Positions 996 through 27,122 of a DNA stretch of 64,000 nucleotides are shown here, in pieces. Position numbers and translations under genes: made by a program. The notes below the pieces were generated by a model. It saw only the letters and a list, made by a program, of their open reading frames with translations, was not told the DNA's origin and did no database searches. Location: NCBI GenBank assembly GCA_017613275.1, contig JAGAED010000003.1, positions 1,501 to 65,500 on the forward strand. The letters are read 5' to 3'. This DNA comes from Clostridia bacterium (GTDB lineage Bacteria; Bacillota; Clostridia; TANB77; CAG-508). Each line of letters starts with the position of its first letter. Position 1 is the stretch's first letter.

Positions 996-1079
996 CTTTC
1001 AGTTAACATTTTGGGACACTTACAAAAAGTAAGGACATGTCTTTACTTTTTGTAAGTGTCCCAAAATGTTAACTGAAAG
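996..1079. repeat. 84-bp near-perfect palindrome with two inverted copies of the TTTTGGGACACT repeat unit
   Basis: The 42-nt arms are complementary except for one G.T position, with the centre at 1037/1038. Confidence 0.9.
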
Positions 1080-5599: not shown

Positions 5600-7427
<1,828 letters not shown>

Positions 7428-7449
7428 GCAAGAAAGGAAAGATGAAAAT

Positions 7450-9090
7450 ATGAAAATCACATATAAAGATAAAGTTTTGGATATTGAAAAACCAGTAATG
7501 GTAAAGGATTTATTTGCAGAAGAAATTGCAAATAGCAAATATAATGTAATGGGATGTTTGGTAAATAATGAATACCAAACATTAAATTACGAATTAAAAG
7601 AAAATGCAAAAATAGATTTTATAGATATGTCAAATAAAGAAGGAATGAAAATATATAGAAGAACACTTATATATATTTTAGGAAAAGCTTTTGGAGAGGT
7701 ATATCCAGAAGCTTTGTTAACTGTAAATTATCAATTATCACATTCAATGTTTTGCGAAGTAGATAATATGGAAGTTACAGATGAAATGATAGAGAAAATT
7801 TTTCAAAAGATGAAAGAAATAATTGAAAAAGATTTGCAAATTGAAAGAAGAGTAATGAATAGAGAAGAAGCGACAAAATTCTTTGAAGAAACAGGTACAG
7901 TAAGAGGAAGATTGCAATTAGATATTCCAGAAAATAAAGATATTGTAATGTATTTCTGTGAAGATTATTATAACTATTGTTATGGAATGTTAGCTTCAAA
8001 TACAGGAGTTGCTGAACTATTTGAGTTACAAAAATATGATGATGGGTTTTTAATTAAATATCCAAGCTCTAAAACTCCAGATGTTGTAGACGAAAAAGTA
8101 GAAAACAAAAAGTTAGCATTTTGTTTAAATGAATATGATGATTTACACAAAATTTTAAAAGTTGATGCTGTTCACAAATTAAATAGAGCAGTAAAAGAAG
8201 ACAAAATAAAAGATGTAATCATGATAGATGAAGCTTTACACGAAAAGAAAATAGCTCTAATAGCTGACGAAATTGCAAAAAGAGAAAAAGTAAAAATGAT
8301 ACTAATAGCTGGGCCTTCATCATCTGGAAAAACAACATTTGCACAAAGATTAGGAATTCAATTAAAAATAAATGGTATTAAACCAGTTACAATTTCAGTA
8401 GATAACTATTTTGTGGAAAGAGAAGACACACCAAGAGATGAAAAGGGTAACTATAATTTTGAAGATATAGAAGCAATTGATTTGGAATTATTTAATAGTC
8501 ATCTAACAAAATTATTAAATGGTGAAGAAGTTGAAATGCCAGAGTTTGACTTTAAAGTTGGAACAAAGAGATATAATGGAAAAAAACTAAAGTTGGCAGA
8601 AGATGAAGTACTTGTAATAGAAGGAATTCATTGCTTAAATGACAAATTAACAAGTAGTATTCCGAAAGAGGGAAAATTCAAAATTTATATTAGTGATTTA
8701 ACAGTTTTAAACATGGATTATTACAATAGAATTTCTTCAACAGACAATAGATTAGTAAGAAGAATAGTTAGAGATTACCAATTTAGAGGATATTCTGCAT
8801 TACATACATTAAAAACATGGCAAAGTGTAAATGATGGAGAAGAAAAAAACATATTCCCATACCAAGAAACAGCAGATGCGATGTTTAATACATCACTAAT
8901 CTATGAATTAGGTGTATTAAGAACAATTGCATTACCATTATTAGAAGAAATAAAAAACGATGAGCCAGAATATGCAGAAGCTCGCAGAATAATAAACTTC
9001 TTAAAATACATAAAAGAAATCCCAGCAGAATTCGTACCAACAAACTCATTACTAAAAGAATTCATGGGTGGAGGAGATTTTAAATACTAA
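7450..9090 (+). CDS. uridine kinase/PRK-family nucleoside kinase with an N-terminal TGS-like extension
   Basis: P-loop AGPSSSGKTTFAQRL and ISVDNYF. The likely start is the ATG at 7450, after an AAAGGAAAG RBS. Confidence 0.7.
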   Translation: MKITYKDKVLDIEKPVMVKDLFAEEIANSKYNVMGCLVNNEYQTLNYELKENAKIDFIDMSNKEGMKIYRRTLIYILGKAFGEVYPEALLTVNYQLSHSMFCEVDNMEVTDEMIEKIFQKMKEIIEKDLQIERRVMNREEATKFFEETGTVRGRLQLDIPENKDIVMYFCEDYYNYCYGMLASNTGVAELFELQKYDDGFLIKYPSSKTPDVVDEKVENKKLAFCLNEYDDLHKILKVDAVHKLNRAVKEDKIKDVIMIDEALHEKKIALIADEIAKREKVKMILIAGPSSSGKTTFAQRLGIQLKINGIKPVTISVDNYFVEREDTPRDEKGNYNFEDIEAIDLELFNSHLTKLLNGEEVEMPEFDFKVGTKRYNGKKLKLAEDEVLVIEGIHCLNDKLTSSIPKEGKFKIYISDLTVLNMDYYNRISSTDNRLVRRIVRDYQFRGYSALHTLKTWQSVNDGEEKNIFPYQETADAMFNTSLIYELGVLRTIALPLLEEIKNDEPEYAEARRIINFLKYIKEIPAEFVPTNSLLKEFMGGGDFKY

Positions 9091-9154
9091 ACTTTTTGGG
9101 ACACTTTCAAAAAGTCACCTGGTTTTTGGGGACACTCCCTAAAAACCAGGTTTT
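9091..9154. repeat. two tandem GGGACAC-repeat hairpins; the second acts as a terminator
   Basis: ACTTTTTGGGACACTTTCAAAAAGT followed by ACCTGGTTTTTGGGGACACTCCCTAAAAACCAGGTTTT. Confidence 0.85.
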
Positions 9155-9169
9155 ATATAGGAGAAGAAA

Positions 9170-9487
9170 ATGTTAGAAAATAGTAGATTTACAGAGATAG
9201 ATGAAGAATTTATTTGTGAAAATTGTGGAAAAAAAGTGCAACCACTTGGATATTCTTGCCGAAATCATTGTCCATATTGTTTACACTCAAAACATGTAGA
9301 TAAAAATCCAGGAGACAGGGCGGAAACTTGCCATGGAGATCTAGAGCCGGTTAGCTTAGAAATAGACAGCAAAAAGGGTTATGTAATAGTTTTTAAGTGT
9401 AAAAAATGTGGTGACATAAGGAAAAACAAGGCAGCAAAAGATGATAATATGGATCTAATTATAGAATTAAGTAGTAAGCAAATATAG
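9170..9487 (+). CDS. RNHCP domain-containing protein
   Basis: The literal motif CRNHCPYCLHSKH plus additional CxxC pairs. Confidence 0.75.
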   Translation: MLENSRFTEIDEEFICENCGKKVQPLGYSCRNHCPYCLHSKHVDKNPGDRAETCHGDLEPVSLEIDSKKGYVIVFKCKKCGDIRKNKAAKDDNMDLIIELSSKQI

Positions 9488-9637
9488 TTAAAAAATTTAC
9501 AGCCTATTTATATTGTGAATAAAAGATATAAGAATAGGCTGTGAATTATAATATAATTGGAAAAATTTTAAAAATTTTAGAAAAAGTATTGACAAGTGGT
9601 AAAAAATCTTGTATACTAGTTCTTGTCGAAAGGACAT

Positions 9638-9713
9638 GGTCGCTTAGCTCAGCTGGTAGAGCATCTGCCTTACAAGCAGGGGGTCATAGGTTCGAGCCCT
9701 ATAGCGACCACCA
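9638..9713 (+). tRNA. tRNA-Val (anticodon TAC)
   Basis: Cloverleaf read by hand. Anticodon loop CTTACAA, encoded CCA. A TTGACA/TATACT promoter lies at 9589-9617. Confidence 0.9.
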
Positions 9714-9743
9714 TTTATTTAATAACATGGCAATATTTAATAT

Positions 9744-9820
9744 GGCCCGGTAGTTCAGTTGGTTAGAACGCTAGCCTGTCACGCTAGAGGTCGACGGTTC
9801 GAGCCCGTTCCGGGTCGCCA
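9744..9820 (+). tRNA. tRNA-Asp (anticodon GTC)
   Basis: Anticodon loop CTGTCAC, T-loop GTTCGAGC, encoded CCA. Confidence 0.9.
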
Positions 9821-9833
9821 TTTTTTTATATAA

Positions 9834-9909
9834 GCCTCGATAGCTCAGTTGGTAGAGCAAGGGACTGAAAATCCCTGTGTCAGTGGTTCGATTCCACTTC
9901 GAGGCACCA
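9834..9909 (+). tRNA. tRNA-Phe (anticodon GAA)
   Basis: Anticodon loop CTGAAAA, T-arm AGTGGTTCGATTCCACT, encoded CCA. Confidence 0.9.
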
Positions 9910-9913
9910 AACC

Positions 9914-9939
9914 AAAAACCACATTTATGTGGTTTTTTT
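9914..9939 (+). terminator. terminator of the tRNA operon
   Basis: AACCACAT/ATGTGGTT stem plus a T7 run. Confidence 0.75.
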
Positions 9940-9966
9940 GTTTGGATTGGCTTGTTGGAATCGAAA

Positions 9967-10035
9967 GGCGGAATAAGAAAACATTCCACTGGAATGTTTT
10001 CCCGCCGTGGCTCGCCGATTCCACTTCGAGGCACC
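9967..10035 (+). repeat. strong hairpin plus a degenerate T-arm and an exact 20-bp copy of the tRNA-Phe 3' end (att-like scar)
   Basis: CGATTCCACTTCGAGGCACC occurs at 9889-9908 and again at 10016-10035. The hairpin GGCGG..AAAACATTCCA-C-TGGAATGTTTT..CCGCC is at 9967-10006. Confidence 0.8.
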
Positions 10036-10185
10036 GGTTAAAGTAATATTTAGTACTGCTGTATGTATTACAAATATTACAAAAATATTACAAATTTATT
10101 TTTTGTAGTATATATCTTTTTTTTTGAAAAGAAGTATAGTAAAATAATATTGGAATTTTTATAATATTATAAGAGAGGTGAGATT

Positions 10186-10512
10186 ATGTATAATAGTAAT
10201 TTGCCCGAAGTGAAAAGAGAAGGTATTTTTATAAAAATAAAAAATTGGTTTAGGAGAATTTTTAAAGAAAGTAAAAGTAAGGAAACAACAGATATTGATA
10301 TTGATAAATATGAGCAAGAAATAAGAAATGAATTTAAAAATAATATACAGGTTAAAGATGAGAATGCAGTAATTCTTATGAGAAAATTTGAAGCAAATAA
10401 AATAAATATATCAGATTTAACAGATATCGAATTAGACAAGTTAATAGCTTTATATAAAGAAAAAATATCCGAAAAAAAGGAAAGATTAAAGCTTACAAAG
10501 GTAAATTTGTAA
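10186..10512 (+). CDS. hypothetical coiled-coil protein
   Basis: 108-aa ORF with a GAGAGGTGAG RBS. Confidence 0.55.
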   Translation: MYNSNLPEVKREGIFIKIKNWFRRIFKESKSKETTDIDIDKYEQEIRNEFKNNIQVKDENAVILMRKFEANKINISDLTDIELDKLIALYKEKISEKKERLKLTKVNL

Positions 10513-10528
10513 GAAATGGAGGATTATA

Positions 10529-12679
10529 ATGGAAAATTATAAACAAAATTATAATAGATATAAAAATACTATTGATTTTTTAAACTATTTATATAAAAAA
10601 AGGGTAACGTATAGGATATATAATATAAATGATTACATACCTCAAGAATTGTCAAATGATGAAACTTTTTATAAAGGTATAGCTGAAGATAATCCACTTT
10701 TATTTAAGGATTTGAGTAGTGATTGGTTAAGAAATCCGAATAATTTCAAAAAAATAATTGAGGCTAATCCATATGTATACCATTATTGTTCTTATGTTTC
10801 TAAGGATTTTTGGAAAGATTCTGAAATTAGTGATGAGTTTAAAAGAATAACTGGTGATTATAATATTATGATGGAAAAAGTTAAAAATTATGGGCGTTGT
10901 TTACAAGATGTTTCGTATGAATTTATGATGAAAAATAATTGCAAAATGCTTTTAGAAGCAGTAAAAAATGATTATAGAGTTTTTATGGATTTTGCCCCAA
11001 AAGAATTACAAGCTCTTTTGACTAGGAATAAAGAGTTTATACTAGATTCTTTTTTAAACTGTTATTCTGACTTGTTTCAAGTTAAAATGTATGCAGTAAT
11101 GCTAAATAATCTTTCAGATGAATTTAAAAATGATAATGAAGTTATTAAAAAAGCTGTAAGTGAGTGTGGATTAACTTTGAAATATTTACAAGAAGATAAT
11201 AAAAATAATGAAGATTATGTAAAAATAGCGGTAACGCAAAACGGATTAGCGCTAAGATATGCTTCAGAAGAACTAAAAAATAATCCGGAAATAGTTAAAA
11301 GTGCAGTAAGCCAAAATGGATTAGCACTAAGATATGCTTCAGAAGAACTAAAAAATAATCCAGGAATAGTTAAAAGTGCAGTAAGTCAAAATGGATTAGC
11401 ATTAAAATATGCATCAGAAGAATTAAAAAATAATAAAGAAAGTGCTCAATTGGCTGTAGATCAAAATAAATTGGCATTAAAAAGTGCAACTAAAGAGTTA
11501 AGAAATAATTATCAAATAAATGTTCCAATTGAAGCATTAGATTTCTCTTTAAAAGTTTTTTGGGAACTAAAGAAAAATAAAATAAATGATTTATTACAAC
11601 TAATAGAATTTCGAAATGATGAAAAGTTTGGTAAAATGACTAAAAAAAGCCAAAAAGAAATCTTAGAAATACTTGAAAGGTATAAAAATAAAACAGAAAG
11701 CGAAGAAGAATATAAGGATATTACTGATGAAATTGAAGATGAAATAAGTGATGACAGTTCAATAAAAGAAGGTATACGCTTAATTGCAAAGGAATTGGTT
11801 AAACATAATGACAATTATGGTGTAGAATATTGGGATTTGCCTGAAAATTTGAGAGAGGATACAGAGGTTACAACGGAAGCAATAAAATATAATCCGGGTA
11901 TTTTTAGAAGTATACCAGAAGATAGAGAGGATTATTATGATATAGTTTTAGAATCGGTAAAATCAGGGCCATATTTAATGAATCATATACCAGAAGATAT
12001 GCAAAAATCTATTGGAAATGATTATGATACTATGATGACAATGGTAAAAAAATCAGAAATTGCATTACATCATGCATCAGAAGATTTAAAAAACGATAGA
12101 GAATTGGTAATTGAAGCAATTAAAAACTATGGCGGTGCAATAAGATATGCATCAGAAGAACTAAGAAACGACCCAGAAATTGTACTAATGGCTTTAAGAC
12201 AAAATGGAAATGCTTTAGAAGATATACCGGAATATTTTTTAAATAATAAAGAAATTGTAATAGAAGCTGCAAAAAATGGTTTGTCTTTTGAGAAGGTGGA
12301 TTCTTTTCTCAAAAAGAAATTAAAAGAACGTGGATATTTAGATGATCCTGATTTTAAGCTTGAAATGGCTAAAAATGGATATAATGAACCTAGGATATTT
12401 ATAGAGGATCCTTTAATAATTGCTGATGCAAAAAAAATATATCAAAGGAGACGAATAGAAGATTATAAAGAGGTTTTATTAACTACAGAAGAGGAACGTA
12501 ATGATTTTTATCATGGAAAATATAAAGAAATTATTAATAAAAAAATTGCAATTGATAACAGAAGATATAAGGAAGAAACTTTACTAAAATTACAACAAGA
12601 AAATTTTAAATTAAATGAAAAAATTTCAGAAATGAAAAATATACTAGATAACTCAAAAGAAACAGATAATCAAAAATAA
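10529..12679 (+). CDS. DUF4116 repeat-containing protein
   Basis: 716 aa with multiple NGLALRYASEELKNNPEIVKSAVSQ-type 25-aa repeats in two blocks. Confidence 0.75.
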   Translation: MENYKQNYNRYKNTIDFLNYLYKKRVTYRIYNINDYIPQELSNDETFYKGIAEDNPLLFKDLSSDWLRNPNNFKKIIEANPYVYHYCSYVSKDFWKDSEISDEFKRITGDYNIMMEKVKNYGRCLQDVSYEFMMKNNCKMLLEAVKNDYRVFMDFAPKELQALLTRNKEFILDSFLNCYSDLFQVKMYAVMLNNLSDEFKNDNEVIKKAVSECGLTLKYLQEDNKNNEDYVKIAVTQNGLALRYASEELKNNPEIVKSAVSQNGLALRYASEELKNNPGIVKSAVSQNGLALKYASEELKNNKESAQLAVDQNKLALKSATKELRNNYQINVPIEALDFSLKVFWELKKNKINDLLQLIEFRNDEKFGKMTKKSQKEILEILERYKNKTESEEEYKDITDEIEDEISDDSSIKEGIRLIAKELVKHNDNYGVEYWDLPENLREDTEVTTEAIKYNPGIFRSIPEDREDYYDIVLESVKSGPYLMNHIPEDMQKSIGNDYDTMMTMVKKSEIALHHASEDLKNDRELVIEAIKNYGGAIRYASEELRNDPEIVLMALRQNGNALEDIPEYFLNNKEIVIEAAKNGLSFEKVDSFLKKKLKERGYLDDPDFKLEMAKNGYNEPRIFIEDPLIIADAKKIYQRRRIEDYKEVLLTTEEERNDFYHGKYKEIINKKIAIDNRRYKEETLLKLQQENFKLNEKISEMKNILDNSKETDNQK
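11165..11464 (+). repeat. 75-bp tandem coding repeats (DUF4116 units)
   Basis: Units at 11240-11314, 11315-11389 and 11390-11464 are nearly identical at the DNA level. Degenerate units flank them. Confidence 0.9.
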
Positions 12680-12833
12680 ATTATAGTAAAATAGCCATAT
12701 AATTTGGTTCTTTTACCTTTATAGATTAAAAAATTTCACCAAACCTGTAACCAAAAAAAATCCCCCCACATATTATATACCATACAAAGGAACAAAAAAA
12801 CTTAAGGAGTTCTTTTGAAAGGGGGTCTAGACT

Positions 12834-12950
12834 ATGCCAGAAAACAGAGGATGCGGAGGTTTCGGATTTGGTGATGACAACTGCTGCTGGATAATAATCC
12901 TTATATTATTAATATGCTGCTGCTGTGGAAATAACAGAGGTTGTTGCTAA
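12834..12950 (+). CDS. 38-aa Cys-rich small membrane protein (not in the ORF track)
   Basis: AAGGGGG RBS, then ATG. Sequence MPENRGCGGFGFGDDNCCWIIILILLICCCCGNNRGCC. A terminator hairpin follows directly. Confidence 0.6.
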   Translation: MPENRGCGGFGFGDDNCCWIIILILLICCCCGNNRGCC

Positions 12951-12965
12951 TCCATAAAATTATAA

Positions 12966-12995
12966 AAATTCCTGACAATTACGTCAGGAATTTTT
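12966..12995. terminator. bidirectional terminator between convergent genes
   Basis: AAATTCCTGAC/GTCAGGAATTT stem. Confidence 0.75.
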
Positions 12996-13000
12996 AACGT

Positions 13001-13798
13001 TTATTTATATCTTATAAAATCATAATTACAATTTTGAGTAATTGTTAAAGCACCATCATATAATGATTTTTCACCATTTTCAAGAGGTGGTTCTATAAAA
13101 ACAGTACATTTAAATTCTTGGTCCAAATTATTTGTGATAATTATATCAAATGAAATTTTACAATTTAAAGAACTTAGTAAAACACCACATTTTTTAAGTA
13201 AAGAACCATCATAGGTTATTGGAGAACCAGTATCTGTAATTGTATAATCTGTTTTTATATTTTCGTTTATATAGCTTAAAACTATTGGATTTGCACAATT
13301 ATTGTATAAAGTTGGAGTGCTTAAATCTTCTGTATCATTTGAACTAATGCTAAAATTTAAATCATTTTCAAAAATATTTTCTTCCAAAATTGTATTTTTT
13401 GCAAAAGAATTTATATTTTTGTAAGCTAATTTTTGAGTTCCAATTGATGGCTTTTCAGTATATTGTAGATTTTCTAATCTTACACTTTTTAATGTATTTT
13501 CCATATTATTTTCATCATTAGTATTGTTCAAAAATATAGCAATATCAGTATATTGGTATAGATTTTCTATTGTGAAATTACTTGCTGTAGCATTTTTATT
13601 TTGGGCATTACAATTACTAAACAATACAATTTTATTTATGGAAAAAATTGTATTTTCATTTTTTGATGCAAAATCCAGATAATCTTTTTCACAATTTGAT
13701 TTATTTTTAAACATTCCGAAAACGCTTGTACATAGCACTACAAATACAATAACTAATATTATAAAAATTGAAATAAAAATAATTTTCTTCTTATCCAA
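13001..13798 (-). CDS. hypothetical membrane-anchored or secreted protein
   Basis: 265 aa with an N-terminal TM helix (IIFISIFIILVIVFVVL). Confidence 0.6.
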   Translation of the reverse strand: MDKKKIIFISIFIILVIVFVVLCTSVFGMFKNKSNCEKDYLDFASKNENTIFSINKIVLFSNCNAQNKNATASNFTIENLYQYTDIAIFLNNTNDENNMENTLKSVRLENLQYTEKPSIGTQKLAYKNINSFAKNTILEENIFENDLNFSISSNDTEDLSTPTLYNNCANPIVLSYINENIKTDYTITDTGSPITYDGSLLKKCGVLLSSLNCKISFDIIITNNLDQEFKCTVFIEPPLENGEKSLYDGALTITQNCNYDFIRYK

Positions 13799-14072
13799 AA
13801 CTTGTCCTCCTTTGTACGCTATTACTATATTATAAATTTAAATTTTTGGCAATATAAATTTTATAAAATGCTAAATATTATTATTTTCAAGCAACAATCG
13901 TGGGGACCGACAAATTACAGTATGTCAAAATATTTGAAAAATATTTTTTTACATACTGTTATGCAGTTGGGAGTTGCAGAAAATAATAATATTTAGCTAT
14001 AATAATAATTTTTCCAAAAATTTAAATTGACAATTTTCTACATTTTGTTTACAATTATTTTAGGTGATAAAT

Positions 14073-15266
14073 ATGAAAACAAAAGAGAAAATATACATAT
14101 TATTTTTGTTGATAATTTTAGCCATATCATTTTTCATATATATTATATTTACAAAAAATAACACTTATGCAAAAGAGTCAAATTCTGGTGTTCAAAATAC
14201 CAGAATTAGCAATGCAAAACAAGTAGACATATATGAAATAATAAAGAAAAATACTGTAGAAAAGCAAGAAGAAACAATAGAAACAAGAGAAGAACCTTTG
14301 GAATTCATTACCAAATACAAAACCAACAACGAGCTTCCAAAAGGCACAATGCAGGTGATTCAAGAAGGTAGAGAAGGTATTCAACAAATATCAATAAAAA
14401 GAATTTACCAAAATGGTAGTTTAATAGATGAGCAACAAATGGGAACAAAAGTTATAAAAGCTTCTGTTGAAAAAATAGTAGAAATTGGTGGAGCAAAATA
14501 CACAAGCTATTATAAAGTTAAAAAAGGCGACAATGTTTACACAACAGCAGATAGGGTTGAGGTAATGTTGGAACCAGATGGAAATAGCCAAAAACTAACT
14601 ACCATAGGGAAAAACAATGAACTAAAAATATTAGATTTAAATGACAATTGGTACAAAGTATCTGGAACAGCAGGAACTGGCTGGGTAAAGAAAGAAAGTA
14701 CTACTTATATAAATCCAAATGAAGGATTTGATGAAAGTAAATATGGGGCAAAATCAAAGGAACAATTGTTAAAAGAACTAAGCTTTGAAATGAAATTAAA
14801 TAAGCCTAGTGGATTAACTCTTGATCAGTTCAAAAAGATACTTTCAGACCCAAAAGATGTTAACAAAATATTTGAACAAAATGCAGAATATTTTTATTAC
14901 ATAGAAAAACAATATAATATAAATGGAGTGTTTGTAGCTGCAATAGGAATTCATGAAAGTGCATGGGGAACTTCTAAAATTGCAAGAGATAAGAAAAACC
15001 TATTTGGCTACGGAGCATACGATTCTAGCCCTTATAAATCTGCATATTCATTTGAAAACTATTCAGAAAGCATAGATTTAATAGCAAGGGTATTAACAAA
15101 ATATTATTTAAACCCAGCTGGAACATCAATTTACAATTCTGAAAAAGCAACTGGAAGTTATTATAATGGTTCAACATTATCAGGCGTAAATAAAAGATAT
15201 GCAACAGATAAAAACTGGGCAAACGGCGTGTTTAGTCATATGAAATATTTATACAATAAATTATAG
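14073..15266 (+). CDS. cell-wall hydrolase: TM + G5 + SH3b + GH73 N-acetylglucosaminidase
   Basis: G5-like VIQEGREGIQQISIKRIYQNG..EIGG, SH3b-like NWYKVSGTAGTGWVKK, and GH73-like GIHESAWGTSKIARDKKNLFGYGAYD. Confidence 0.75.
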   Translation: MKTKEKIYILFLLIILAISFFIYIIFTKNNTYAKESNSGVQNTRISNAKQVDIYEIIKKNTVEKQEETIETREEPLEFITKYKTNNELPKGTMQVIQEGREGIQQISIKRIYQNGSLIDEQQMGTKVIKASVEKIVEIGGAKYTSYYKVKKGDNVYTTADRVEVMLEPDGNSQKLTTIGKNNELKILDLNDNWYKVSGTAGTGWVKKESTTYINPNEGFDESKYGAKSKEQLLKELSFEMKLNKPSGLTLDQFKKILSDPKDVNKIFEQNAEYFYYIEKQYNINGVFVAAIGIHESAWGTSKIARDKKNLFGYGAYDSSPYKSAYSFENYSESIDLIARVLTKYYLNPAGTSIYNSEKATGSYYNGSTLSGVNKRYATDKNWANGVFSHMKYLYNKL

Positions 15267-15423
15267 AAGAATTAATACATAAAAAATGCTGAAAAATATA
15301 TAAGAATTTAATTTTTTTCTCAAAAATTGTTGCTATTTTTTGAATAATATTGTATCATATATAGGTAAATAGTGTAAAATCTGAATGTACAAAAAAATGT
15401 AATATTTTAATAAATAGAAGGGA

Positions 15424-15840
15424 ATGAAAAAAATGAAAAGTAAAGCAATAATAATATTAGCAATAGTAACAATTTTTGCTATGTTTTTCTGTGCAACACA
15501 TGTATATGCAGAAAACAAAGTCTTAGACTCAAAAATTGAAGGACAATTGGTAGAAATCAAAGAACATGAAACAAAAACAATCGAGGATTACCAAGCAAGA
15601 TATGGCTCTGAAGCCTACGGAACTGTTGCATACATATTAAACTTAGTTAGAATATGGAGTATTCCACTTTGCTTTTTAGGAATAGCTATTGGAGCAGTAC
15701 ATAAATCAATTTTAGGTATTCGTAAATTAGATACACTAGAAAAAGGTAGAGGTATGGTTGTAATGTTCGTTACAATACTAATAATATGCCAAGTCTTACC
15801 ACTAGCATTCACACTAGTTGTAAAATTTGGAAGGGGGTAA
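15424..15840 (+). CDS. small secreted two-TM membrane protein (VirB2/TrbC-like topology)
   Basis: Signal peptide ending VYA-EN, followed by two hydrophobic helices separated by a basic loop. Confidence 0.55.
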   Translation: MKKMKSKAIIILAIVTIFAMFFCATHVYAENKVLDSKIEGQLVEIKEHETKTIEDYQARYGSEAYGTVAYILNLVRIWSIPLCFLGIAIGAVHKSILGIRKLDTLEKGRGMVVMFVTILIICQVLPLAFTLVVKFGRG

Positions 15841-15843
15841 CAA

Positions 15844-17544
15844 ATGAAAGTTTTATTTGCTGTAAGTAATGAGGAGATATCAGAAACAATTGTTAAAAGA
15901 TATCAAAAACAATATAAGGAGATAATATCATACAAAAATGTCTATTACTTTAATGCAATATTAAAAGAAATACAAAAGGACAAAACTTATGATAGAATAG
16001 TAATAAGTGAAGAGTTAGAGGCATTTACAAATACACAGTATGAACAAATAGATAGATTTATATTTGATAAATTAGATAGCATAAGTGATGAAGCAGCTAA
16101 CACCAGAGGAGATAATACACCTATTATCTTAATATGTTCAGATAGAAGAACAAAAGGCGAAGAAATGCTTGTTAAATTATTTGGAATTGGTATTTATGAT
16201 GCTTTAATTGGAAATGATAGAGGAGTAGATGAGGTTTGTAATTTAATTCATAAATCTCGTTCTAAAAAAGAAGCAAAATTATATTATAAAATTGAAGCGG
16301 ACGAAGTAAAATATCAATCTGAAAATGAAAATGATGTTAGTGAGCAAGAGATTCAAAATATTTTGGCACATTATAAAAGACTTGGAAAGAATGAAGATAA
16401 ATATGTTACAAGTTTTGATAATATAGTTGCTCAGTACAATGATGCCCAATTAAGAATTATAAGCAAATTCTTACCATTAAATGTAAGAGCTGTTTTGGAA
16501 GAAAAATCACCAAAATATCAACAAATAATGTCATTTAACAATGCGGTTACAGATAGCATTAGAAAGCCTAAAAAGCCACAAAGTTTAGGACCAAGTGGTA
16601 AATTATTAAGACCAAAAAATAAAGCTGTAATGCCAACAGAACCAATTGTTATACCAAATGCAGTTGATACTGAAAATGTTAAAAAATTAACAAGAAATCG
16701 TGCGAATAAAGTTGATGACGGAATTCAAGGAATAGAAGAAACATTAAGCGGTTTTGACAATAATTCAAATAATGATTTTAATGCTTTTGAACAAGACGAT
16801 AGCAAGCAAGTTCAAAATAGTTATAATCCATTTGAATCAAATAATAATCAAACAGCTTATGATCCTTTTGCACAAGATAATAATCAAAATCAAGACGCTT
16901 TTGATCCTTTTGCACAAAGCAATACACAATTTGAAAACTTTACAAGCTTTAATAGCGATATAACAAATAGTTTCCAAAATGAAATTCCAGAAGAGCCAAA
17001 AAGAAGAGGAAGAAAGCCAAAAAATGTTGAAGAAGAAGAAGAACCAGTTCAACCTCAAGCACCAAAAAGAAGAGGTAGACCAAGAAAAAATCCAGTGGTT
17101 GAGCCACAAGATGATGGTATTCTTCCAGGATTTGAAGCATCATATTCAAACCATCAAGAAGAAGAAAATGATGATGATACAATATTACCGGGATTTGAAG
17201 AAATAGATGATAATGTATTACCAGGATTCGAAGAAAACAATAGTAATGATAATATATTACCAGGTGTTGAAGAAGATAACAGTGAAGATAATGCATTACC
17301 AGGATTCGAAGATTATAATATAAATAATAGTGAACCACAAAGCTTTGATGACAACGAACAATTCAATAATAATCAGTTTGATAATTACCAATTTGAAAAC
17401 AATCCATTTGAAAATAATCAGTTTGATAACAATCAATTTGAAAACAATCCATTTGAAAATAATCAGTTTGATAACAATCAATTCGGAAATAATCAATTTG
17501 GAAACGCTCAATTTAGTAGTAATCAATTTGATAATAGCCAATAA
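15844..17544 (+). CDS. pseudo-receiver domain protein with AT-hooks, LPGFE repeats and NNQF pentapeptide repeats; ends at an in-frame TAA inside the repeat array
   Basis: N-terminal CheY-like alternation without the acidic pocket. KRRGRKPK and KRRGRPRK motifs. Five copies of (I/V/A)LPG(F/V)E(E/D/A). About 11 NNQF(D/E/G) units before the stop. Confidence 0.6.
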   Translation: MKVLFAVSNEEISETIVKRYQKQYKEIISYKNVYYFNAILKEIQKDKTYDRIVISEELEAFTNTQYEQIDRFIFDKLDSISDEAANTRGDNTPIILICSDRRTKGEEMLVKLFGIGIYDALIGNDRGVDEVCNLIHKSRSKKEAKLYYKIEADEVKYQSENENDVSEQEIQNILAHYKRLGKNEDKYVTSFDNIVAQYNDAQLRIISKFLPLNVRAVLEEKSPKYQQIMSFNNAVTDSIRKPKKPQSLGPSGKLLRPKNKAVMPTEPIVIPNAVDTENVKKLTRNRANKVDDGIQGIEETLSGFDNNSNNDFNAFEQDDSKQVQNSYNPFESNNNQTAYDPFAQDNNQNQDAFDPFAQSNTQFENFTSFNSDITNSFQNEIPEEPKRRGRKPKNVEEEEEPVQPQAPKRRGRPRKNPVVEPQDDGILPGFEASYSNHQEEENDDDTILPGFEEIDDNVLPGFEENNSNDNILPGVEEDNSEDNALPGFEDYNINNSEPQSFDDNEQFNNNQFDNYQFENNPFENNQFDNNQFENNPFENNQFDNNQFGNNQFGNAQFSSNQFDNSQ

Positions 17545-17592
17545 GTAAATAATCAATTTAATAATAACCAATATAATAATTATAATCAAGTA
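17356..17592 (+). repeat. 15-bp (pentapeptide NNQF-x) tandem coding repeat spanning the TAA at 17542-17544
   Basis: AATAATCARTTTGAN units. Period and frame are preserved on both sides of the stop. Confidence 0.85.
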
Positions 17593-17724
17593 CCATCATA
17601 TGATGTACAAGCTGGTGATTTCTCAAGACTATTAACAGATAGTAAGAAGATTGCAACATTTGTTGGAACAAGCAAAAATGGAACATCGTTTATAGTAAAT
17701 AATCTTGCAGAATACGCTTCTTCT

Positions 17725-18495
17725 ATGGGAATAAATGTAGCAATATTAGATACAACAAAGAATAAAAATTCATATTATATTTATACTAAAAATGAGGAAG
17801 AATTAAGACAAATAGCAGGAAATTGCTTGCAAAACTTAACAAATGGACAAGCAAAAGGAATTAGTGTAAACAGAAACTTAACAGTTTACACATCTTTACC
17901 AGAAGATAGAGAAGAATTAAACAATGTAAACTCTATACTAGAAACATTAGTAAGAGTACATGATTTAATATTGATAGATTGTGATTTCGATACACCTTAT
18001 GGGTATTTTGCAGATGCACAAGAAATCTATCTAGTACAATCATACGATATTCTTACAATACAACCATTAACAGCGTTTATGAGAGAATTAAAAGCACAAA
18101 ATATATTAGACCAAAGCAAACTAAGAATCTTATTAAATAAACATGTTAAAGTAAGAGGAATATCAGAAAAAACAATAGTTGGAGGAATGTCAAAATACAA
18201 TGATCCAGCAATGTCATTTATGACAGATTTATTTGATGTAAATGCTGTAAAATTTATGACAATACAATTTGAACAAGATATATATACAAGATATTTAGAA
18301 AGTGTAATAAATTGTGATGTATCAATCAAAGGATATTCAAAAACATTTACACAAACATTAAAAGAATTATGCAATTGGGTATATCAAAATTCAATGGGAA
18401 ATAATTCTTATAGACCACAAACAAGTTCATATAGCAATTCAACATTTTCAGCAAATATGAATGATACATTAAATCAAATGAGAAGAAAATATTAA
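17725..18495 (+). CDS. ParA/MinD/CpaE-like ATPase domain, probably the C-terminal part of the interrupted upstream gene
   Basis: Same frame as 15844..17544, with no stop between 17545 and 17725. The degenerate Walker A GTSKNGTS (17665-17688) lies upstream of the first ATG. Walker-B-like HDLILIDCD. Confidence 0.55.
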   Translation: MGINVAILDTTKNKNSYYIYTKNEEELRQIAGNCLQNLTNGQAKGISVNRNLTVYTSLPEDREELNNVNSILETLVRVHDLILIDCDFDTPYGYFADAQEIYLVQSYDILTIQPLTAFMRELKAQNILDQSKLRILLNKHVKVRGISEKTIVGGMSKYNDPAMSFMTDLFDVNAVKFMTIQFEQDIYTRYLESVINCDVSIKGYSKTFTQTLKELCNWVYQNSMGNNSYRPQTSSYSNSTFSANMNDTLNQMRRKY

Positions 18496-18512
18496 AATAG
18501 GGGGAAAAACAA

Positions 18513-19640
18513 GTGGCATTTGCAATAGTAGTAATTCTTGTAATAATAGTCATAGGATTAGTAATATATAATTTAAATATACACAAGAAAATACAAACAT
18601 TTAACAATATAAATCAAAGAATAAACAACTTATCTATTGTTCAAGATTTTATGAGCATAGTTGGTGAAAGAATTTCTGTTGATCAAAAAATTCAAAAAAT
18701 GAACGATACACTAATAGAAAAGTATGAAATAAAATATTCTACAATAGTTGTATTTGATGGCGCAGAATACACAATAAAAGCGTCAAATGTGGATAGAAAA
18801 CACTGGAATTCGTTGAAATCACTACAAAATGTGGATATGTTTAAAGATAGCATTGCTACAGCAACCCCAAAATATGTTACAGTAAATGAAGAGGGAGAAA
18901 GACTTCCTTATCAACAAGTGGAATTTGGTAGAGCAAAATCTGCCATCTTCTTCCCATTATATATAGATAATGTATATATTGGATATTGGATTATAGAAAG
19001 CGGAACACCTCATGACTTCGACAATGTAGATATTACAATTTTAGATGTTGTAAAAGATAACATGGTTTCTGTTTTAAAAAATGTTGTACACCAAAAAACA
19101 TTAGAAGCATTAGATAGAATTGATAAGTTTACAGGGTTAGATTCAGAAGCTTATTTATATGGTGATGGTAAAAAAATAATAGACAAATATACAATGTCAA
19201 CTGTATGTATGTTTAAAATTACAAACCTAGAAGATATAAATATAAAATGTTCAAGAGAACTTGGAAATAAGGTTGTTAAAGAGGTAAGTAATTACTTTAA
19301 ACAAAATTTAACAAGTGAATATATACTTGTTAGATATATGGGACCTAAATTTGCAATAGTATTTTCAGGCGTAGAATTAAATGGAGTTGTAGAATTTTTA
19401 AATGACAATAAAGAAGAAATAGAAAAATTACAAATTTCATTAGAAAATATTAACGAGAAACCAGAAGAAACAAAAACAGCTAAAAAAGGTAGAAAGAAAA
19501 AACAAGTTGTTGTTAGTCCAAGACTAAACTTTGCAGTATCTACATATTATAAAGGAACTGGATTAGAAGAAGTACTTAAAAAACTAGAAAACTATTTAGA
19601 TTCAGCGCCAGTTGGCGAAAATGATATAAATAATATTTAA
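18513..19640 (+). CDS. membrane-anchored GAF-like + degenerate GGDEF domain protein
   Basis: N-terminal TM. DKFTGLDSE and VRYMGPKFAIVF stand in place of D.LTGL.NR and RYGGDEF. No RxxD I-site seen. Confidence 0.6.
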   Translation: MAFAIVVILVIIVIGLVIYNLNIHKKIQTFNNINQRINNLSIVQDFMSIVGERISVDQKIQKMNDTLIEKYEIKYSTIVVFDGAEYTIKASNVDRKHWNSLKSLQNVDMFKDSIATATPKYVTVNEEGERLPYQQVEFGRAKSAIFFPLYIDNVYIGYWIIESGTPHDFDNVDITILDVVKDNMVSVLKNVVHQKTLEALDRIDKFTGLDSEAYLYGDGKKIIDKYTMSTVCMFKITNLEDINIKCSRELGNKVVKEVSNYFKQNLTSEYILVRYMGPKFAIVFSGVELNGVVEFLNDNKEEIEKLQISLENINEKPEETKTAKKGRKKKQVVVSPRLNFAVSTYYKGTGLEEVLKKLENYLDSAPVGENDINNI

Positions 19641-19655
19641 TTTTGGAGGTAAATT

Positions 19656-19907
19656 ATGGAATTTGACAAAACTATGAATTTTAAGGTAGAAAAAGAATCT
19701 ACAAACCAAACAAAAGAAATCCTAAGAGAGGTATATGAAGCTTTAGTTGAAAAAGGATATAATCCAATCAATCAATTAGTAGGATATATTTTATCAGGTG
19801 ACCCAACATACATTACAAGCCATAACAATGCAAGAAACAAGATAAGAACAATTGAAAGAGATGAGTTGTTAGAAAAACTTGTTAAAAATTATATAGGAAT
19901 AGAATAA
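19656..19907 (+). CDS. ireB: IreB family regulatory phosphoprotein (UPF0297)
   Basis: 83 aa with [27 protein letters not shown]. Confidence 0.85.
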
Positions 19908-19908
19908 T

Positions 19909-20322
19909 ATGAGAGTTTTAGGACTAGACTATGGCGAAGCCCGTGTAGGAGTGGCCATAACAGATGAATTAAAAATTACAGCACAAGGATTAGAAACAAT
20001 ACAAAGAAACAATTCAGATAAAATTGTATTAAAAAGAATAGACGAAATTTTATCTGAGTATCAAGTAGATACAATAGTTGTTGGATTACCACTTACTCTT
20101 AAGGGAACAAAGTCAGAAAGAACAATAAAAACAGAAGAATTTATTCATAAATTAAAATGTAAATATAACACTTTAAAAATAGAAACAGTAGATGAGCGTT
20201 TAACAACAGTTCAAGCACATTCAACAATGAACATGCTTGGAGTGAAAAATACAAAAAAACGTGGAATTGTGGATACAATAGCCGCTGTGTATATTTTAGA
20301 GGTTTATATAAATAAAAAATGA
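19909..20322 (+). CDS. ruvX: Holliday junction resolvase-like RuvX/YqgF
   Basis: Starts MRVLGLDYGEARVGVAITD. 137 aa. Confidence 0.9.
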   Translation: MRVLGLDYGEARVGVAITDELKITAQGLETIQRNNSDKIVLKRIDEILSEYQVDTIVVGLPLTLKGTKSERTIKTEEFIHKLKCKYNTLKIETVDERLTTVQAHSTMNMLGVKNTKKRGIVDTIAAVYILEVYINKK

Positions 20323-20394
20323 TTTTTATAAATTTATTGAAAGCATTTTCGATAAATGATAATATAAAAATATAAAATTTGAAAGGAGAATAAA

Positions 20395-20706
20395 ATGGAA
20401 GAAAATTTTGAAGGAGAAGAATTAGATAACATCGTAGTATTAAACGACGAGAACGGAAACGAAGTAAAATTTGAATTCCTAGACTTAATAGAATTAGATG
20501 ATGAAGAATATGTAGTATTACTACCAATGGCAGAAGAAGGAGAAGAAGATGGAGAAGTAGTAATATTAAAATTAGAAGATAATGATGACGAAGATTCAGA
20601 AGAAGAATCATATGTTAGCGTTGATGATGAAGATGTACTAAATAGAGTATTTGAAATATTTAAAGAAAAATTTAAAGATGATTTTGATTTTATAGATGAA
20701 GACTAG
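20395..20706 (+). CDS. DUF1292 domain protein (UPF0473)
   Basis: Acidic 103-aa protein with NGNEVKFEFLDLIELDDEEYVVLLP. It sits in the conserved ireB-ruvX-DUF1292 order. Confidence 0.8.
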   Translation: MEENFEGEELDNIVVLNDENGNEVKFEFLDLIELDDEEYVVLLPMAEEGEEDGEVVILKLEDNDDEDSEEESYVSVDDEDVLNRVFEIFKEKFKDDFDFIDED

Positions 20707-20771
20707 TAAAACAAACGAAAGTGAAAAACTCTGTTTTTCACTTTTATTGAATTTATAAAGGAGGAAAACAA

Positions 20772-21248
20772 ATGAAGAACTTTTCAACATGGATGTTAGT
20801 AATGTTTATGGGAATGTTCTGGTTATTTAGAGTATTAGTTGCTGTTATGCCGGAATTTGGAACAACATTAGGAAGTTTTGTTCCACTAAATAGTCAAATC
20901 GAAATAATACTTTGTTTTATAGTAGTAGTATGTATGCTTCTAGTAGTAAAAAGAAAACTTCTAGGTGGAATAATATACCTAGTTGCTTATGGAATGTATT
21001 TTGGAGTAGATTTATTTAATAATTTTGGTTCAATAATGAATGGAACATTAGCACCAGAAAGCGCATTAAACACATTTGTATCATTTTTAGGAATAGTACT
21101 TCCAATCGCTGTTTTATTAGATTTATTAGTTGATAAAGGAAGAAAAATAAATCCAACAGATAAAAAGACAGATTGGTTCTATAAAAATGAACAATATGAC
21201 AGAAAACTAGATGAAAGAGCAGACAAAAATAATTATAGAACCCTATAA
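20772..21248 (+). CDS. hypothetical integral membrane protein
   Basis: 158 aa with about 4 TM helices. Confidence 0.6.
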   Translation: MKNFSTWMLVMFMGMFWLFRVLVAVMPEFGTTLGSFVPLNSQIEIILCFIVVVCMLLVVKRKLLGGIIYLVAYGMYFGVDLFNNFGSIMNGTLAPESALNTFVSFLGIVLPIAVLLDLLVDKGRKINPTDKKTDWFYKNEQYDRKLDERADKNNYRTL

Positions 21249-21262
21249 AACCTTTTTTGGAG

Positions 21263-21299
21263 CACTTAACTTTTTGAAAGTGTCCCAAAAAGTTAAGTG
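21263..21299. repeat. GGGACAC-repeat hairpin (minus orientation)
   Basis: CACTTAACTTTTTGAAAGTGTCCCAAAAAGTTAAGTG. Confidence 0.85.
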
Positions 21300-21309
21300 G
21301 GAGGAATAA

Positions 21310-22215
21310 ATGAAAACACAAAAAAACATTTTAATAGCATTTATTTTAAATTTATCGTTTTCAATATTTGAATTTTTTGGAGGATTTTTTACAAATTCAG
21401 TTGCAATATTATCAGATTCAATACATGATTTAGGAGATGCCTTATCTATAGGTATTTCTTACTTCTTGGAAAGAAAAAGCAAGAAAAAAGCTGATAAAAA
21501 ATACACCTATGGTTACATCAGATATTCTGTTCTTGGTGGAGTAATAACAACAACAATATTATTAATAGGCTCAATATTAGTGATTATTGGGGCAGTAGAA
21601 AGAATAATAAATCCGGTAGATGTTAATTATAATGGAATGATAATATTTGCAGTTGTAGGTGTTGCCTTAAATTTCTTAGCAGCATATGTAACAAGAGAGG
21701 GAGATTCAATAAATCAAAAATCTGTTAATCTACATATGTTAGAAGATGTTTTAGGTTGGGTAGTTGTGCTTATTGGCGCAATAATAATGAACTTTACAGA
21801 TATAAAAATAATAGATCCAATAATGAGTATAGGTGTTGCAATTTTTATATTATTCAGTTCATTAAGAAACCTTAAGAAGGTATTAGATATATTCTTAGAA
21901 AAAACACCAAATGATGTTGATATAGACGAATTAAAAGAACATCTATTAAAAATAAAAGATGTAGAAGATATACACCATATTCATGTATGGAGTATTGATG
22001 GATTTAATAATTATGCGACAATGCATATAGTTACAAAATCTCAAGATGTAAAAAACGTTAAAAAAGAAATAAGAGAAGAATTGACAGAACACAATATTTG
22101 CCATGCAATATTGGAAACAGAAGATGAAGTGTGTGAAGATGTTGAATGTAATGTAGAATTTCATAATGAAGGTCATCATCATCACCAACATCACCAACAT
22201 CACCATCATCATTAG
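21310..22215 (+). CDS. czcD: cation diffusion facilitator (Zn/Co/Cd efflux) with a His-rich tail
   Basis: SDSIHDLGDALS in TM2, six TM helices, and a C-terminal HNEGHHHHQHHQHHHHH tail. Confidence 0.85.
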   Translation: MKTQKNILIAFILNLSFSIFEFFGGFFTNSVAILSDSIHDLGDALSIGISYFLERKSKKKADKKYTYGYIRYSVLGGVITTTILLIGSILVIIGAVERIINPVDVNYNGMIIFAVVGVALNFLAAYVTREGDSINQKSVNLHMLEDVLGWVVVLIGAIIMNFTDIKIIDPIMSIGVAIFILFSSLRNLKKVLDIFLEKTPNDVDIDELKEHLLKIKDVEDIHHIHVWSIDGFNNYATMHIVTKSQDVKNVKKEIREELTEHNICHAILETEDEVCEDVECNVEFHNEGHHHHQHHQHHHHH

Positions 22216-22395
22216 TTCAAGAATAATTGGAAAAAACTGATTAAAAATATATAAGAAATCAAAGAGTAAAAAGCAAGTGATAAGTTGAAAATCACTTGCT
22301 TTTGTGGTAAAATATAGAAGTATAGAAAAATCATGATTTTAAGAAGTATTTAAAATTTGTGTGGACTATAAAAGTTCAAACTAATAGGAGATATT

Positions 22396-23421
22396 ATGAA
22401 AAAAGATAATAAAAAAAGAAAACCTAGAAAAGAACTATCAACAGGAGTTAGCTTAATACTAGTATTAATGTTTGTTGTAGTTTTCATTTATTTTGGTGTA
22501 TGTATTGGATTTATAATAAATTCATTTATAAATTACTCTATTGATTACATAGCAACACATGCACTTATAACTTTATTAGTTGGTGTTGTATACATGACTT
22601 TATTATTAATACTAATTCGTAATAGCGATAGCAAAAATGTTCAACCATTAAAATGGTATATTAATTGTATACTTATATCATTTACAACAAATCTAATTAT
22701 TTCTGCAATAACCGTATTCACATTAGGAACCCAAGAAGGTAATGATATAAACTTTTTGGTAGGTTTTTGTATTTTCCCTTTCATAGGAATTATAACTACA
22801 CCTAATATAATAAAATATGTAAAAAAAGATACAACAAAATGGAAAAAAATTTTTTATAAAAACGGAAATCTACACAAAATTAAAGCTTCAAAAGATTATT
22901 ATAGAGTACAAACACCAGTGGCATTTGAGAAAAAAATATTATCAGCGGTATATAAAGAACAATTAAAAACTGTGTTATTTGTAATAGCGTATATGGTCAT
23001 GACAATAGTAGCTAGCGTACATTATATGTCTAGAGAACATGATTTTTCAGGAGGAATAGTGAGTGACCTTATTGAATTAAGAGCTAAAAAAGAATTTGGT
23101 TTTGCATTCTTTTTAATGATTATCTTTTTAGCATTTGGTATACCTATAATTGCTTATTATGTTGCTAATGCTTGGAAAAAAATAAGAGTTGTAAAAAATC
23201 ATGAATATATTGCATATCATGCAATTATTCAAGGTGTTCATAATGGGAATATCGGTATTTATGCTGAAAAAAGGCATTATACATATAAATACTGCACTTG
23301 CGTTGGAATAAAAGAAAAAGATGTAAAACAAACTCCAGTGACTTTAATATTTTTACCAGATGATGTATTCTTATTTCCAGATGGTGAAGAGAGTTCAAAC
23401 GAAGTTATTAAAAGCCTTTAG
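22396..23421 (+). CDS. hypothetical multi-pass membrane protein
   Basis: 341 aa with a basic N-terminus, about 6 TM helices and a soluble C-terminal domain. Confidence 0.55.
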   Translation: MKKDNKKRKPRKELSTGVSLILVLMFVVVFIYFGVCIGFIINSFINYSIDYIATHALITLLVGVVYMTLLLILIRNSDSKNVQPLKWYINCILISFTTNLIISAITVFTLGTQEGNDINFLVGFCIFPFIGIITTPNIIKYVKKDTTKWKKIFYKNGNLHKIKASKDYYRVQTPVAFEKKILSAVYKEQLKTVLFVIAYMVMTIVASVHYMSREHDFSGGIVSDLIELRAKKEFGFAFFLMIIFLAFGIPIIAYYVANAWKKIRVVKNHEYIAYHAIIQGVHNGNIGIYAEKRHYTYKYCTCVGIKEKDVKQTPVTLIFLPDDVFLFPDGEESSNEVIKSL

Positions 23422-23470
23422 ATAAATATATAATAAATATTTTATTAGGAGAGGATAGGAAGTGTTAAAA

Positions 23471-23560
23471 ATGGAAGAAAAAAGAGCAAGTTTTAACTGT
23501 GAAAAATGGGCAAAAGCAAAACCCTCTATAAAGGTTGAAAAACAAATAGTTTTTGTATAA
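23471..23560 (+). CDS. 29-aa micro-ORF with the NCEKWAKAK motif
   Basis: MEEKRASFNCEKWAKAKPSIKVEKQIVFV. It is paralogous to the micro-ORF at 23999..24073. Confidence 0.4.
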   Translation: MEEKRASFNCEKWAKAKPSIKVEKQIVFV

Positions 23561-23598
23561 AACATCTTTCATGATTTGATTAAAAGGGGATAAATAAT

Positions 23599-24009
23599 AT
23601 GGAAAAAGTATTAGGATATGATTGTGATGGTAGAGAAATCTATGAATACAGAATTCTACGTGCAATTTTTTCAAATGATATAGATATAGAAGATTTAGAA
23701 GATGCAGACCCTAGAATGTATTGTGCTGTTGTAGCTAATGATGGAAAAGCTTATGCGATTAGCGTATTTGATTGGTGGAATAAAGCTTTGATTAGAAAAA
23801 GAGAAAATATAAAAGAAAATGAAGAAATACCGATAATTATAAAATCAATAGATGAAATGAAAAATTATGAACTAGCAATGTGTGATGGTGGTGAAAAAGA
23901 ATTTTATTATGATTTTGATCGTAATAAGCTTAAAACTCAATTAAACACAGCGCTAAATAAAGACAAAGTAATAAATAAAAATATAGGAGATGACTCATAT
24001 GAACGATAA
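23599..24009 (+). CDS. hypothetical protein
   Basis: 136-aa ORF with an AAAGGGG RBS. Confidence 0.55.
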   Translation: MEKVLGYDCDGREIYEYRILRAIFSNDIDIEDLEDADPRMYCAVVANDGKAYAISVFDWWNKALIRKRENIKENEEIPIIIKSIDEMKNYELAMCDGGEKEFYYDFDRNKLKTQLNTALNKDKVINKNIGDDSYER

Positions 24010-24073: not shown

Positions 24074-24122
24074 ACACTTTTTAAAAGAAACAACTTTCGT
24101 AATTCAAGAAATGAGGAGAAAA

Positions 24123-26280: not shown

Positions 26281-26290
26281 GGTGAGTAAA

Positions 26291-27121: not shown

Positions 27122-27122
27122 T

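Follow-up and report, generated by a model that had tools for sequence, protein, structure and literature searches.

Two hairpin repeats, at 9085-9117 and 9116-9152, follow one another between an ORF at 7411-9090 and an ORF at 9170-9487 in the stretch of DNA analyzed here, a window of 64,000 nucleotides that represents C11:1501-65500 in the assembly of the genome under study (G000). The assembly comprises 1.155 Mb (~1.16 Mb) in 17 contigs with 29% GC and is 95% complete. As relatives G000 has uncultured Clostridia sampled from the guts of goat, rabbit and other animals and from human (Hadza) gut samples; among them G137 (= G058 = L001), a MAG from goat omasum, is ~85% identical to G000.

The two repeats belong to a family with further members in the window. 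Allowing at most one mismatch, the 13-mer TTTTTGGGACACT yields 8 matches in the window versus 0.11 expected, a number reached by none of 100 shuffles, and the 8-mer GGGACACT likewise yields 8 versus 0.28 expected. The same 8 were recovered with a profile from all genomic copies. In total the window contains 8 intact units and one degenerate unit at six intergenic sites. An earlier note on this DNA, made from the sequence by eye, had described six loci and about nine units, each of them intergenic. All six loci were borne out with coordinates correct to within a few bases, the unit count was right, and every copy in the window does lie between ORFs. An Rfam scan of the window at gathering thresholds detected only 6S RNA and four tRNAs and gave no match at the units. 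We refer to units with TCCC in the 3' apical arm as type A and to those with TTTC (or TTAC) in this position as type B. The units of the window are as follows.

996-1079, REPIN-like doublet of two type B units, 999-1043 (+) and 1035-1077 (-), head to head; nhmmer E 9e-9 and 3e-8
9085-9117, + strand, type B unit, ACTTTTTG / GGACACTTT / CAAAAAGT; fold -5.2 kcal/mol, z -2.7
9116-9152, + strand, type A unit, perfect 16-bp hairpin with CAC triloop and core GGGGACAC; fold -14.9 kcal/mol, z -6.6
21259-21299, - strand, single type B unit with a 12-bp stem; E 1e-9; fold -8.9 kcal/mol, z -4.0
28443-28486, + strand, chimeric unit (type B left arm and type A right arm); E 9e-10; fold -6.2 kcal/mol, z -1.4
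~32812-32840, + strand, degenerate unit (TTTTTAGAACACTTAG...), inverted partner of 32847-32889
32847-32889, - strand, unit whose 3' apical arm reads TCTT, convergent with the degenerate 32812-32840; fold -1.4 kcal/mol, z +0.2
49590-49634, - strand, type A unit, perfect 14-bp hairpin; E 8e-10; fold -13.6 kcal/mol, z -5.7, on either strand

On one side of the doublet is the start of ORF 492-935, which is on the minus strand, and on the other the 6S RNA gene (1325-1517). In two units of the window the stem foot lies on a stop codon: unit 9085-9117 overlaps the stop of ORF 7411-9090 (9088-9090), and unit 49590-49634, between the TspO ORF 49126-49590 and the Fur ORF 49671-50102, reaches the stop at 49588-49590. 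Unit 9116-9152 is followed by TTTT and then by the ribosome-binding site of ORF 9170-9487, and unit 21259-21299 occupies the 61-nt spacer of ORFs 20772-21248 and 21310-22215. The chimeric unit begins 7 nt past ORF 28047-28436, which encodes a Ribonuclease_3 domain, and the degenerate unit begins right at the stop of the P-type ATPase ORF 30094-32811.

Further elements were observed in the window. The sequence ATATTACAATTATATTACACT (28480-28500) follows the chimeric unit and also the units at C1:59273, C9:56192 and C14:33786; a pilin-like gene comes next, at 28564-29666, in which the N-terminal stretch K-G-I-T-L-I-A-L can only be read with a change of frame at AAG CGG A. At 13860-14005 the window contains a second dispersed repeat of ~125-145 nt, composed of GTGGGGACCGACAAATTA, an internal hairpin and AGTTGGGAG and weakly self-complementary. 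It has ~5 copies in G000 and at least 15 matches in G137, with no Rfam match, and a related sequence was found downstream of the ATPase gene in L003.

All units follow a common plan, consisting of a variable outer stem, a T-run, GGGA, a CAC loop, TYYC, an A-run and the outer stem again, and both types are symmetric about the A of CAC. Type A, with ~60 copies in G000, is a perfect hairpin made of an outer arm CCTTG or CCTGG, T5-6, GGGA, CAC, TCCC, A5-6 and the complementary outer arm; with DNA energy parameters the type A units of the window fold at -13.6 to -14.9 kcal/mol (z -5.7 to -6.6). Type B, with ~52 copies, has TTAAC-type arms, and its units in the window fold more weakly, at -5.2 to -8.9 kcal/mol (z -2.7 to -4.0). 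Here GGGA pairs with TTTC as G-C, G.T, G.T and A-T, and because two of these pairs are wobbles, pairing is complete only on the GGGACAC strand, the opposite strand having two A.C mismatches. Between subfamilies the outer stem shows a compensating two-sided change, the same pair being T-A in 21 units and G-C in 12. Placing the conserved part in the loop or upper stem, as had been proposed, needs to be specified by type: in type A it comprises the apical stem and the CAC triloop, and in type B it is a 9-nt loop when DNA energy parameters are used, or the same apical stem once two G.T wobbles are admitted. The flanking stems do differ, as described before, yet they are not unique to each copy, since the arms recur as the subfamilies CCTTG/CAAGG, CCTGG/CCAGG and TTAAC/GTTAA.

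Half of the type B units in G000 are arranged in 13 head-to-head doublets with core starts ~27-45 nt apart, mostly 43. The doublet at 996-1079 forms a 40-bp hairpin, and the DNA fold of 994-1081 reaches -41.5 kcal/mol (z -14.6). Not every copy lies within a hairpin as the earlier note had it. This holds for six of the eight units, and the exceptions, 28446-28480 and 32848-32886, have no complementary left arm, and neither folds better than shuffles (z -1.4 and +0.2). Both combine the left arm of type B with the right arm of type A. Such chimeric half-units could come from a tandem B+A arrangement like that at 9085-9152 by deletion between the cores.

Genome-wide, GGGACACT has 105 matches in G000 where our own base-composition estimate predicts ~7, and nhmmer detects ~121 units at E<0.01. 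This amounts to ~100 copies per Mb, a density comparable to that of REPs in E. coli. Long ORFs make up 90% of the genome, and 88 of the 105 matches (~84%) lie outside them, that is, in the ~10% of G000 that is ORF-free; the remainder is mostly found in over-extended 5' ends of ORFs. The motif is far more frequent than base composition predicts and not equally common inside genes; the reverse of either finding had been named in the earlier note as speaking against the family. Outside the window, six units are in frame within five intact G000 ORFs and encode peptides of the F-W/G-D-T-P-Q-K type such as QTFWDTPQKPG and ETFGDTPQKQG. These ORFs are C16:52809-53738 (MurB), C14:18375-22085 (AddA-like UvrD/PD-(D/E)XK), C5:2920-4446 (GidA/TrmFO-like), C2:72046-73779 and C5:42783-51194 (2804 aa). 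The unit in MurB also occurs in G137, as a larger form.

The family is unevenly distributed among relatives. TTTTKGGGACACT was counted 68 times in G000, 13 times in G022, 0-2 times in each of 23 other genomes of the same genus and not at all in 16 sampled genomes from other families of the order. With the shorter pattern TTKGGGACAS we obtained 173 matches in G137, 99 in G000 and 57 in G022, and TTKGGGACAC has 55 matches in G138 and 22 in G139. The repeat family is lineage-specific; it is not a trait of the whole clade and is missing from most genomes of the genus.

Together with the copy number, the extragenic location, the hairpins and the inverted doublets, this lineage restriction supports the proposal of the earlier note that the motif represents a REP/BOX-type dispersed family. 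An associated RAYT had also been envisaged there. It was not found in G000, but inverted units do bracket a Y1 transposase gene in G137, where it is intact, and in G138, where it is frameshifted. Apart from G000, 100 of 120 sampled genomes of the genus contain PF01797 genes, which are of two sorts: a classical IS200 type (~150 aa, 120-139 bits) and a long, weak-scoring type (~250-310 aa). G137 encodes exactly one, P0001, a protein of 253 aa in which the HUH and Tyr motifs are present. It scores 40.5 bits on PF01797 (cut-off 23) and 77.1 on NCBIfam REP_Tyr_transpos, just under the cut-off of 80. Among PDB entries it matches E. coli TnpA-REP best (4ER8, E 0.046), with an alignment that spans the HUH motif and the catalytic Tyr block (Y-x-H-x-N-P).

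The G137 cassette consists of three units (+, +, -), a MazE/PIN gene pair, the gene for P0001 and two - units directly past its stop, and the flanks of the transposase gene carry TGGGACAC/GGGGACAC. The MazE-type antitoxin and PIN-domain toxin genes (L094 721-1381) lie inside the repeat bracket together with P0001, as if they were cassette cargo. In G138 the homologue contains one frameshift, its two pieces being 71% and 47% identical to P0001, and is bracketed by a type B unit ~120 nt upstream (+) and another right past the stop (-). The next-closest homologues, in G070 (59%) and G082 (54%), are bracketed by the variants GGGGACAG and GGGACACCTACC. Across many genomes of the genus, 24 of the 25 RAYT-like loci examined are bracketed by inverted repeats that contain (G)GGGAC and are otherwise variable. 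The variants at the P0001 homologues and the GGGAC at these 24 loci indicate that the repeat follows the protein. There is no simple relation between copy number and the gene: with 57 core matches, G022 has a homologue of only 31% identity, and G070 and G082, with close homologues, have 9-12 copies.

Two further observations concern the long Y1 genes. Those in L113, L115, L119, L120 and L146 seem to begin with ATT (ATT CCA AGA = I-P-R) where P0001 has ATG (M-P-R), which suggests weak non-ATG starts for the transposase in these relatives. In L112 and L114-L120 a long Y1 gene with ATGATTTTGGGGACGGAGG-type flanks is found at one shared position, where a tex-like gene (MDKIIKTIAEELNIK...) lies immediately downstream, and as judged from this constant position the clade may be inherited vertically.

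In G000 itself, of which ~5% is unassembled, the PF01797 profile search gave no match, and tblastn with P0001 left no trace (best E-value 0.12). A TnpB-type partner was also considered; the only matches to PF07282 were zinc-ribbon matches below threshold, within open frames of 713 and 732 aa, and these were discarded. The orthologue of the gene upstream of the G137 cassette is C2:27017-27319, and downstream of it G000 has a terminator and one unit. G137 is 3.3 kb longer at this locus: a terminator comes first, then units, the MazE/PIN pair and the Y1 gene, with more units and an AAA_14 gene behind it, before the terminator-plus-unit seen in G000 is reached. Since no transposase gene was found in G000, no activity is claimed for the units there.

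To compare individual sites, the flanks of 36 G000 repeat sites were mapped onto 475 kb of G137. Units at C2:15862, C2:72063 and C16:22609 and the doublet at C8:6415 are present in G000 and absent in G137, although some of these 'empty' sites could be deletions, as the two genomes are only ~85% identical. Conversely, additional partners or clusters of unit size are found in G137 at C16:12940, C10:3440, C8:5173 and C16:73905. Such unit-sized differences are indirect signs of movement. Neither a target-site rule nor a target duplication could be derived from the filled and empty sites of G000 and G137.

Within the window, structural differences between species coincide with units at three of the six sites. 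The site of the doublet 996-1079 holds a single degenerate unit in G137 and is an inversion breakpoint in G138. The segment 498-1095, which includes the minus-strand ORF 492-935, is inverted in G138 (C5:20230-20767) relative to G000, with the doublet at one of its breakpoints. Unit 9085-9117 is found at the orthologous site of G137, and unit 9116-9152 has a degenerate counterpart in G138 and none in G137. The G137 junction that matches 21259-21299 contains 4.7 kb of other DNA and no unit. The site of unit 28443-28486 is empty in G137, and the unit forms the left edge of a 1.36-kb segment missing from that genome. The degenerate unit 32812-32840 has an intact orthologous copy in G137 (L001), and its partner 32847-32889 is present in G137 and absent from the same intergenic region of L003 and L002. 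To look for insertion polymorphism within the species, contigs from four public gut-metagenome runs were also aligned to positions 9001-29000 of the window; they were short and ended or mis-joined at units (for example 9115 to 21269, with a shorter side of only 21-24 nt), making them uninformative on mobility.

These data make it probable that the units are non-autonomous hairpin repeats of the REP/REPIN type, belonging to a RAYT/TIRYT-like Y1 (HUH) transposase clade of the genus and orphaned in G000. This reading builds on features that were computed directly, namely the family and its geometry, its confinement to intergenic DNA and a single lineage, the Y1 gene with inverted units on both sides in sister genomes, the absence of that gene in G000 and the presence or absence of units at individual sites. 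The enzyme, encoded once per genome between inverted repeat copies, would recognize the repeat folded into a hairpin in single-stranded DNA, and would cut and rejoin at the GGGAC(AC) tag in the upper stem and loop. Single units and inverted doublets would in this way spread through intergenic DNA, landing mostly right behind stop codons and within or next to terminators. Given that no cassette was found, the ~120 copies in G000 are probably immobile relics, which would decay by point mutation, by deletion between neighboring cores, giving chimeric half-units, and by recombination. Some of them probably serve as transcript-end hairpins as a side effect.

Such a role could also be the primary one. 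The units might be intrinsic terminators or mRNA 3'-end hairpins whose apical sequence is kept by recognition through a host protein or RNA, the link to the transposase being incidental. Several features fit. Sense-oriented units are located at a median of 12-16 nt past stop codons, the type A hairpins are strong (-13.6 to -14.9 kcal/mol) and sometimes followed by TTTT, and at C2:45920, C8:6415 and C16:22609 the repeat hairpin stands where an ordinary terminator hairpin is found in G137. Type B, moreover, pairs fully only on the GGGACAC strand, where the wobbles become G.U pairs in RNA. However, a T-run (at least 3 T within 7 nt past the stem) follows only 15 of 41 sense and 2 of 13 antisense type A units, and for type B the numbers are 6 of 33 sense and 8 of 27 antisense. 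Hairpin plus U-tract, the hallmark of intrinsic terminators, is therefore no property of the family, although some single copies such as 9116-9152 combine the two. As most units lack a T-tract, termination can be no more than a side effect. Many units adjoin a separate canonical terminator, divergent promoter regions contain copies as well, and so do, in frame, the five ORFs, most genomes of the genus terminate transcription without the motif, and in sister genomes the units bracket the Y1 gene. We thus regard a primarily terminator function as improbable. The alternative offered in the earlier note, of terminators sharing a recognition loop, is left with a secondary role at best, given the few T-runs and the ordinary terminators that stand separately beside several units. 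Single copies, 9116-9152 for one, may plausibly terminate transcripts or protect their 3' ends, but this does not define the family.

The orientation of the units bears on the same question. At tandem gene pairs the type A core lies on the coding strand in a ratio of 34:6. It also lies on the leading strand, as inferred from skew, in a ratio of 53:12, and of 19:6 in contexts without a single gene direction. As 86% of the ORFs are co-oriented with GC skew, replication strand and gene direction are inseparable, and the bias may reflect either insertion into the lagging-strand template, as known from IS608, or selection at the RNA level, which cannot be separated here.

A short conserved core in high copy number, often as inverted pairs past genes, is also what would be expected of a DNA uptake sequence (DUS/USS-like) of a naturally competent bacterium, frequently arranged in terminators as an inverted pair. 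Genes, too, commonly contain uptake sequences, whereas ~84% of the core matches lie in the intergenic 10% of G000. Moreover, what is conserved is a hairpin of 30-45 nt with subfamily arms instead of a bare 9-12-mer, and the motif differs between close species, where it follows the Y1 gene variant, and is absent from most genomes of the genus. This makes an uptake sequence very unlikely. We give equally little credence to the idea that the units are MITEs derived from or moved by a DDE-type insertion sequence or another recombinase in place of the Y1 enzyme. The ~80-nt doublets (e.g. 996-1079) do resemble MITEs with long terminal inverted repeats; yet no target-site duplications were seen at filled or empty sites, no larger element was found that has such ends together with a DDE gene, and Y1 is the sole type of gene found between inverted units, as it is at 24 of the 25 RAYT-like loci of the genus. 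A sigma-54 promoter, an integron attC site and a CRISPR repeat were considered and dropped on misfit of spacing and consensus, and because the link to the Y1 gene explains the family.

Starting from REP/REPIN-type repeats of a Y1 clade as the preferred reading, a broader idea can be put forward tentatively, although we consider it rather doubtful. The genus may carry a third class of REP tag beside GTAG and CGTC, consisting of hairpins whose upper stem bears (T)nGGGAC, where every variant would diversify along with a long Y1 enzyme of its own, and the ~100 orphans in G000 may have been taken over as transcript-end elements instead of just decaying. Such a takeover is possible in view of their placement (median 12 nt past stops) and orientation (34:6 with the gene).

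To our knowledge, REP/RAYT systems have been characterized almost only in Proteobacteria, and the family described here adds a dense and clear-cut REP-type example from gut and rumen Clostridia with small genomes. It also provides a natural series on repeats after loss of the transposase, with the gene intact in G137 (173 copies), frameshifted in G138 (55) and not found in G000 (~100-120). In practical terms, the units break short-read assemblies and are liable to be annotated as terminators or regulatory RNAs.

The kind of system is already known, as REP/REPIN-RAYT or TIRtron, and the family with the GGGACAC core is itself undescribed: our literature search found no paper on this motif family, and queries with the core sequence matched only unrelated primer sequences. 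The TIRs that flank TIRYT genes share the motif GGGGWSAS and form families described as 'moderately abundant' (Di Nocera, De Gregorio & Rocco 2013, PMC3733652). The present family resembles TIRtrons in its bracketed Y1/HUH gene and in its dispersal as singles, dimers and clusters (173 copies in G137), and GGGGACAC fits GGGGWSAS exactly (PMC3733652). Most units, however, read TGGGACAC, one mismatch away from this motif, the density of ~100 copies per Mb contrasts with the moderate abundance of the published TIR families, and the hosts are uncultured low-GC gut Clostridia, with G000 lacking a TIRYT gene.

With IS200/IS605 elements (IS608 TnpA) the system shares a Y1 HUH enzyme (PF01797) of the sort that acts on single-stranded DNA hairpins, and classical IS200-type TnpA is found in the genus as well. 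It differs in that the partner gene is long (~250 aa), scores weakly on PF01797, is single-copy in G137 and has no TnpB, and in that the repeats proliferate without the gene. Similar to Rickettsia palindromic elements and intragenic REPs (Di Nocera et al. 2013), a few units are in frame in intact genes and translated, although genes harbor only ~6 of 120 copies, all of them outside the window.

REP/BIME/REPIN-RAYT systems, among them E. coli TnpA-REP (4ER8) and the Pseudomonas REPINs, are also close counterparts. Bertels et al. (2017) reported that 16-mers are abundant in the flanks only in RAYT groups 2 and 3, and listed Clostridia only under group 1 (PMC5581495). Our aligned copies have no GTAG/CGTC at the stem foot and instead an invariant GGGACAC block at the apex, and P0001 differs from RAYTs by a C-terminal extension of ~110 aa and a score just under the REP_Tyr_transpos cut-off. 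The gut Clostridium host and the long form of the Y1 enzyme also set the family apart from classical REPs. In common with these systems, the units are short extragenic palindromes that occur in hundreds per genome, mostly past genes (Bertels & Rainey 2011, PMC3116915; PMC5581495), with inverted doublets as the likely mobile unit and a single-copy Y1 gene flanked by the repeats. As in REP/REPIN-RAYT systems, the gene has been lost in some lineages and the repeats have been left behind.
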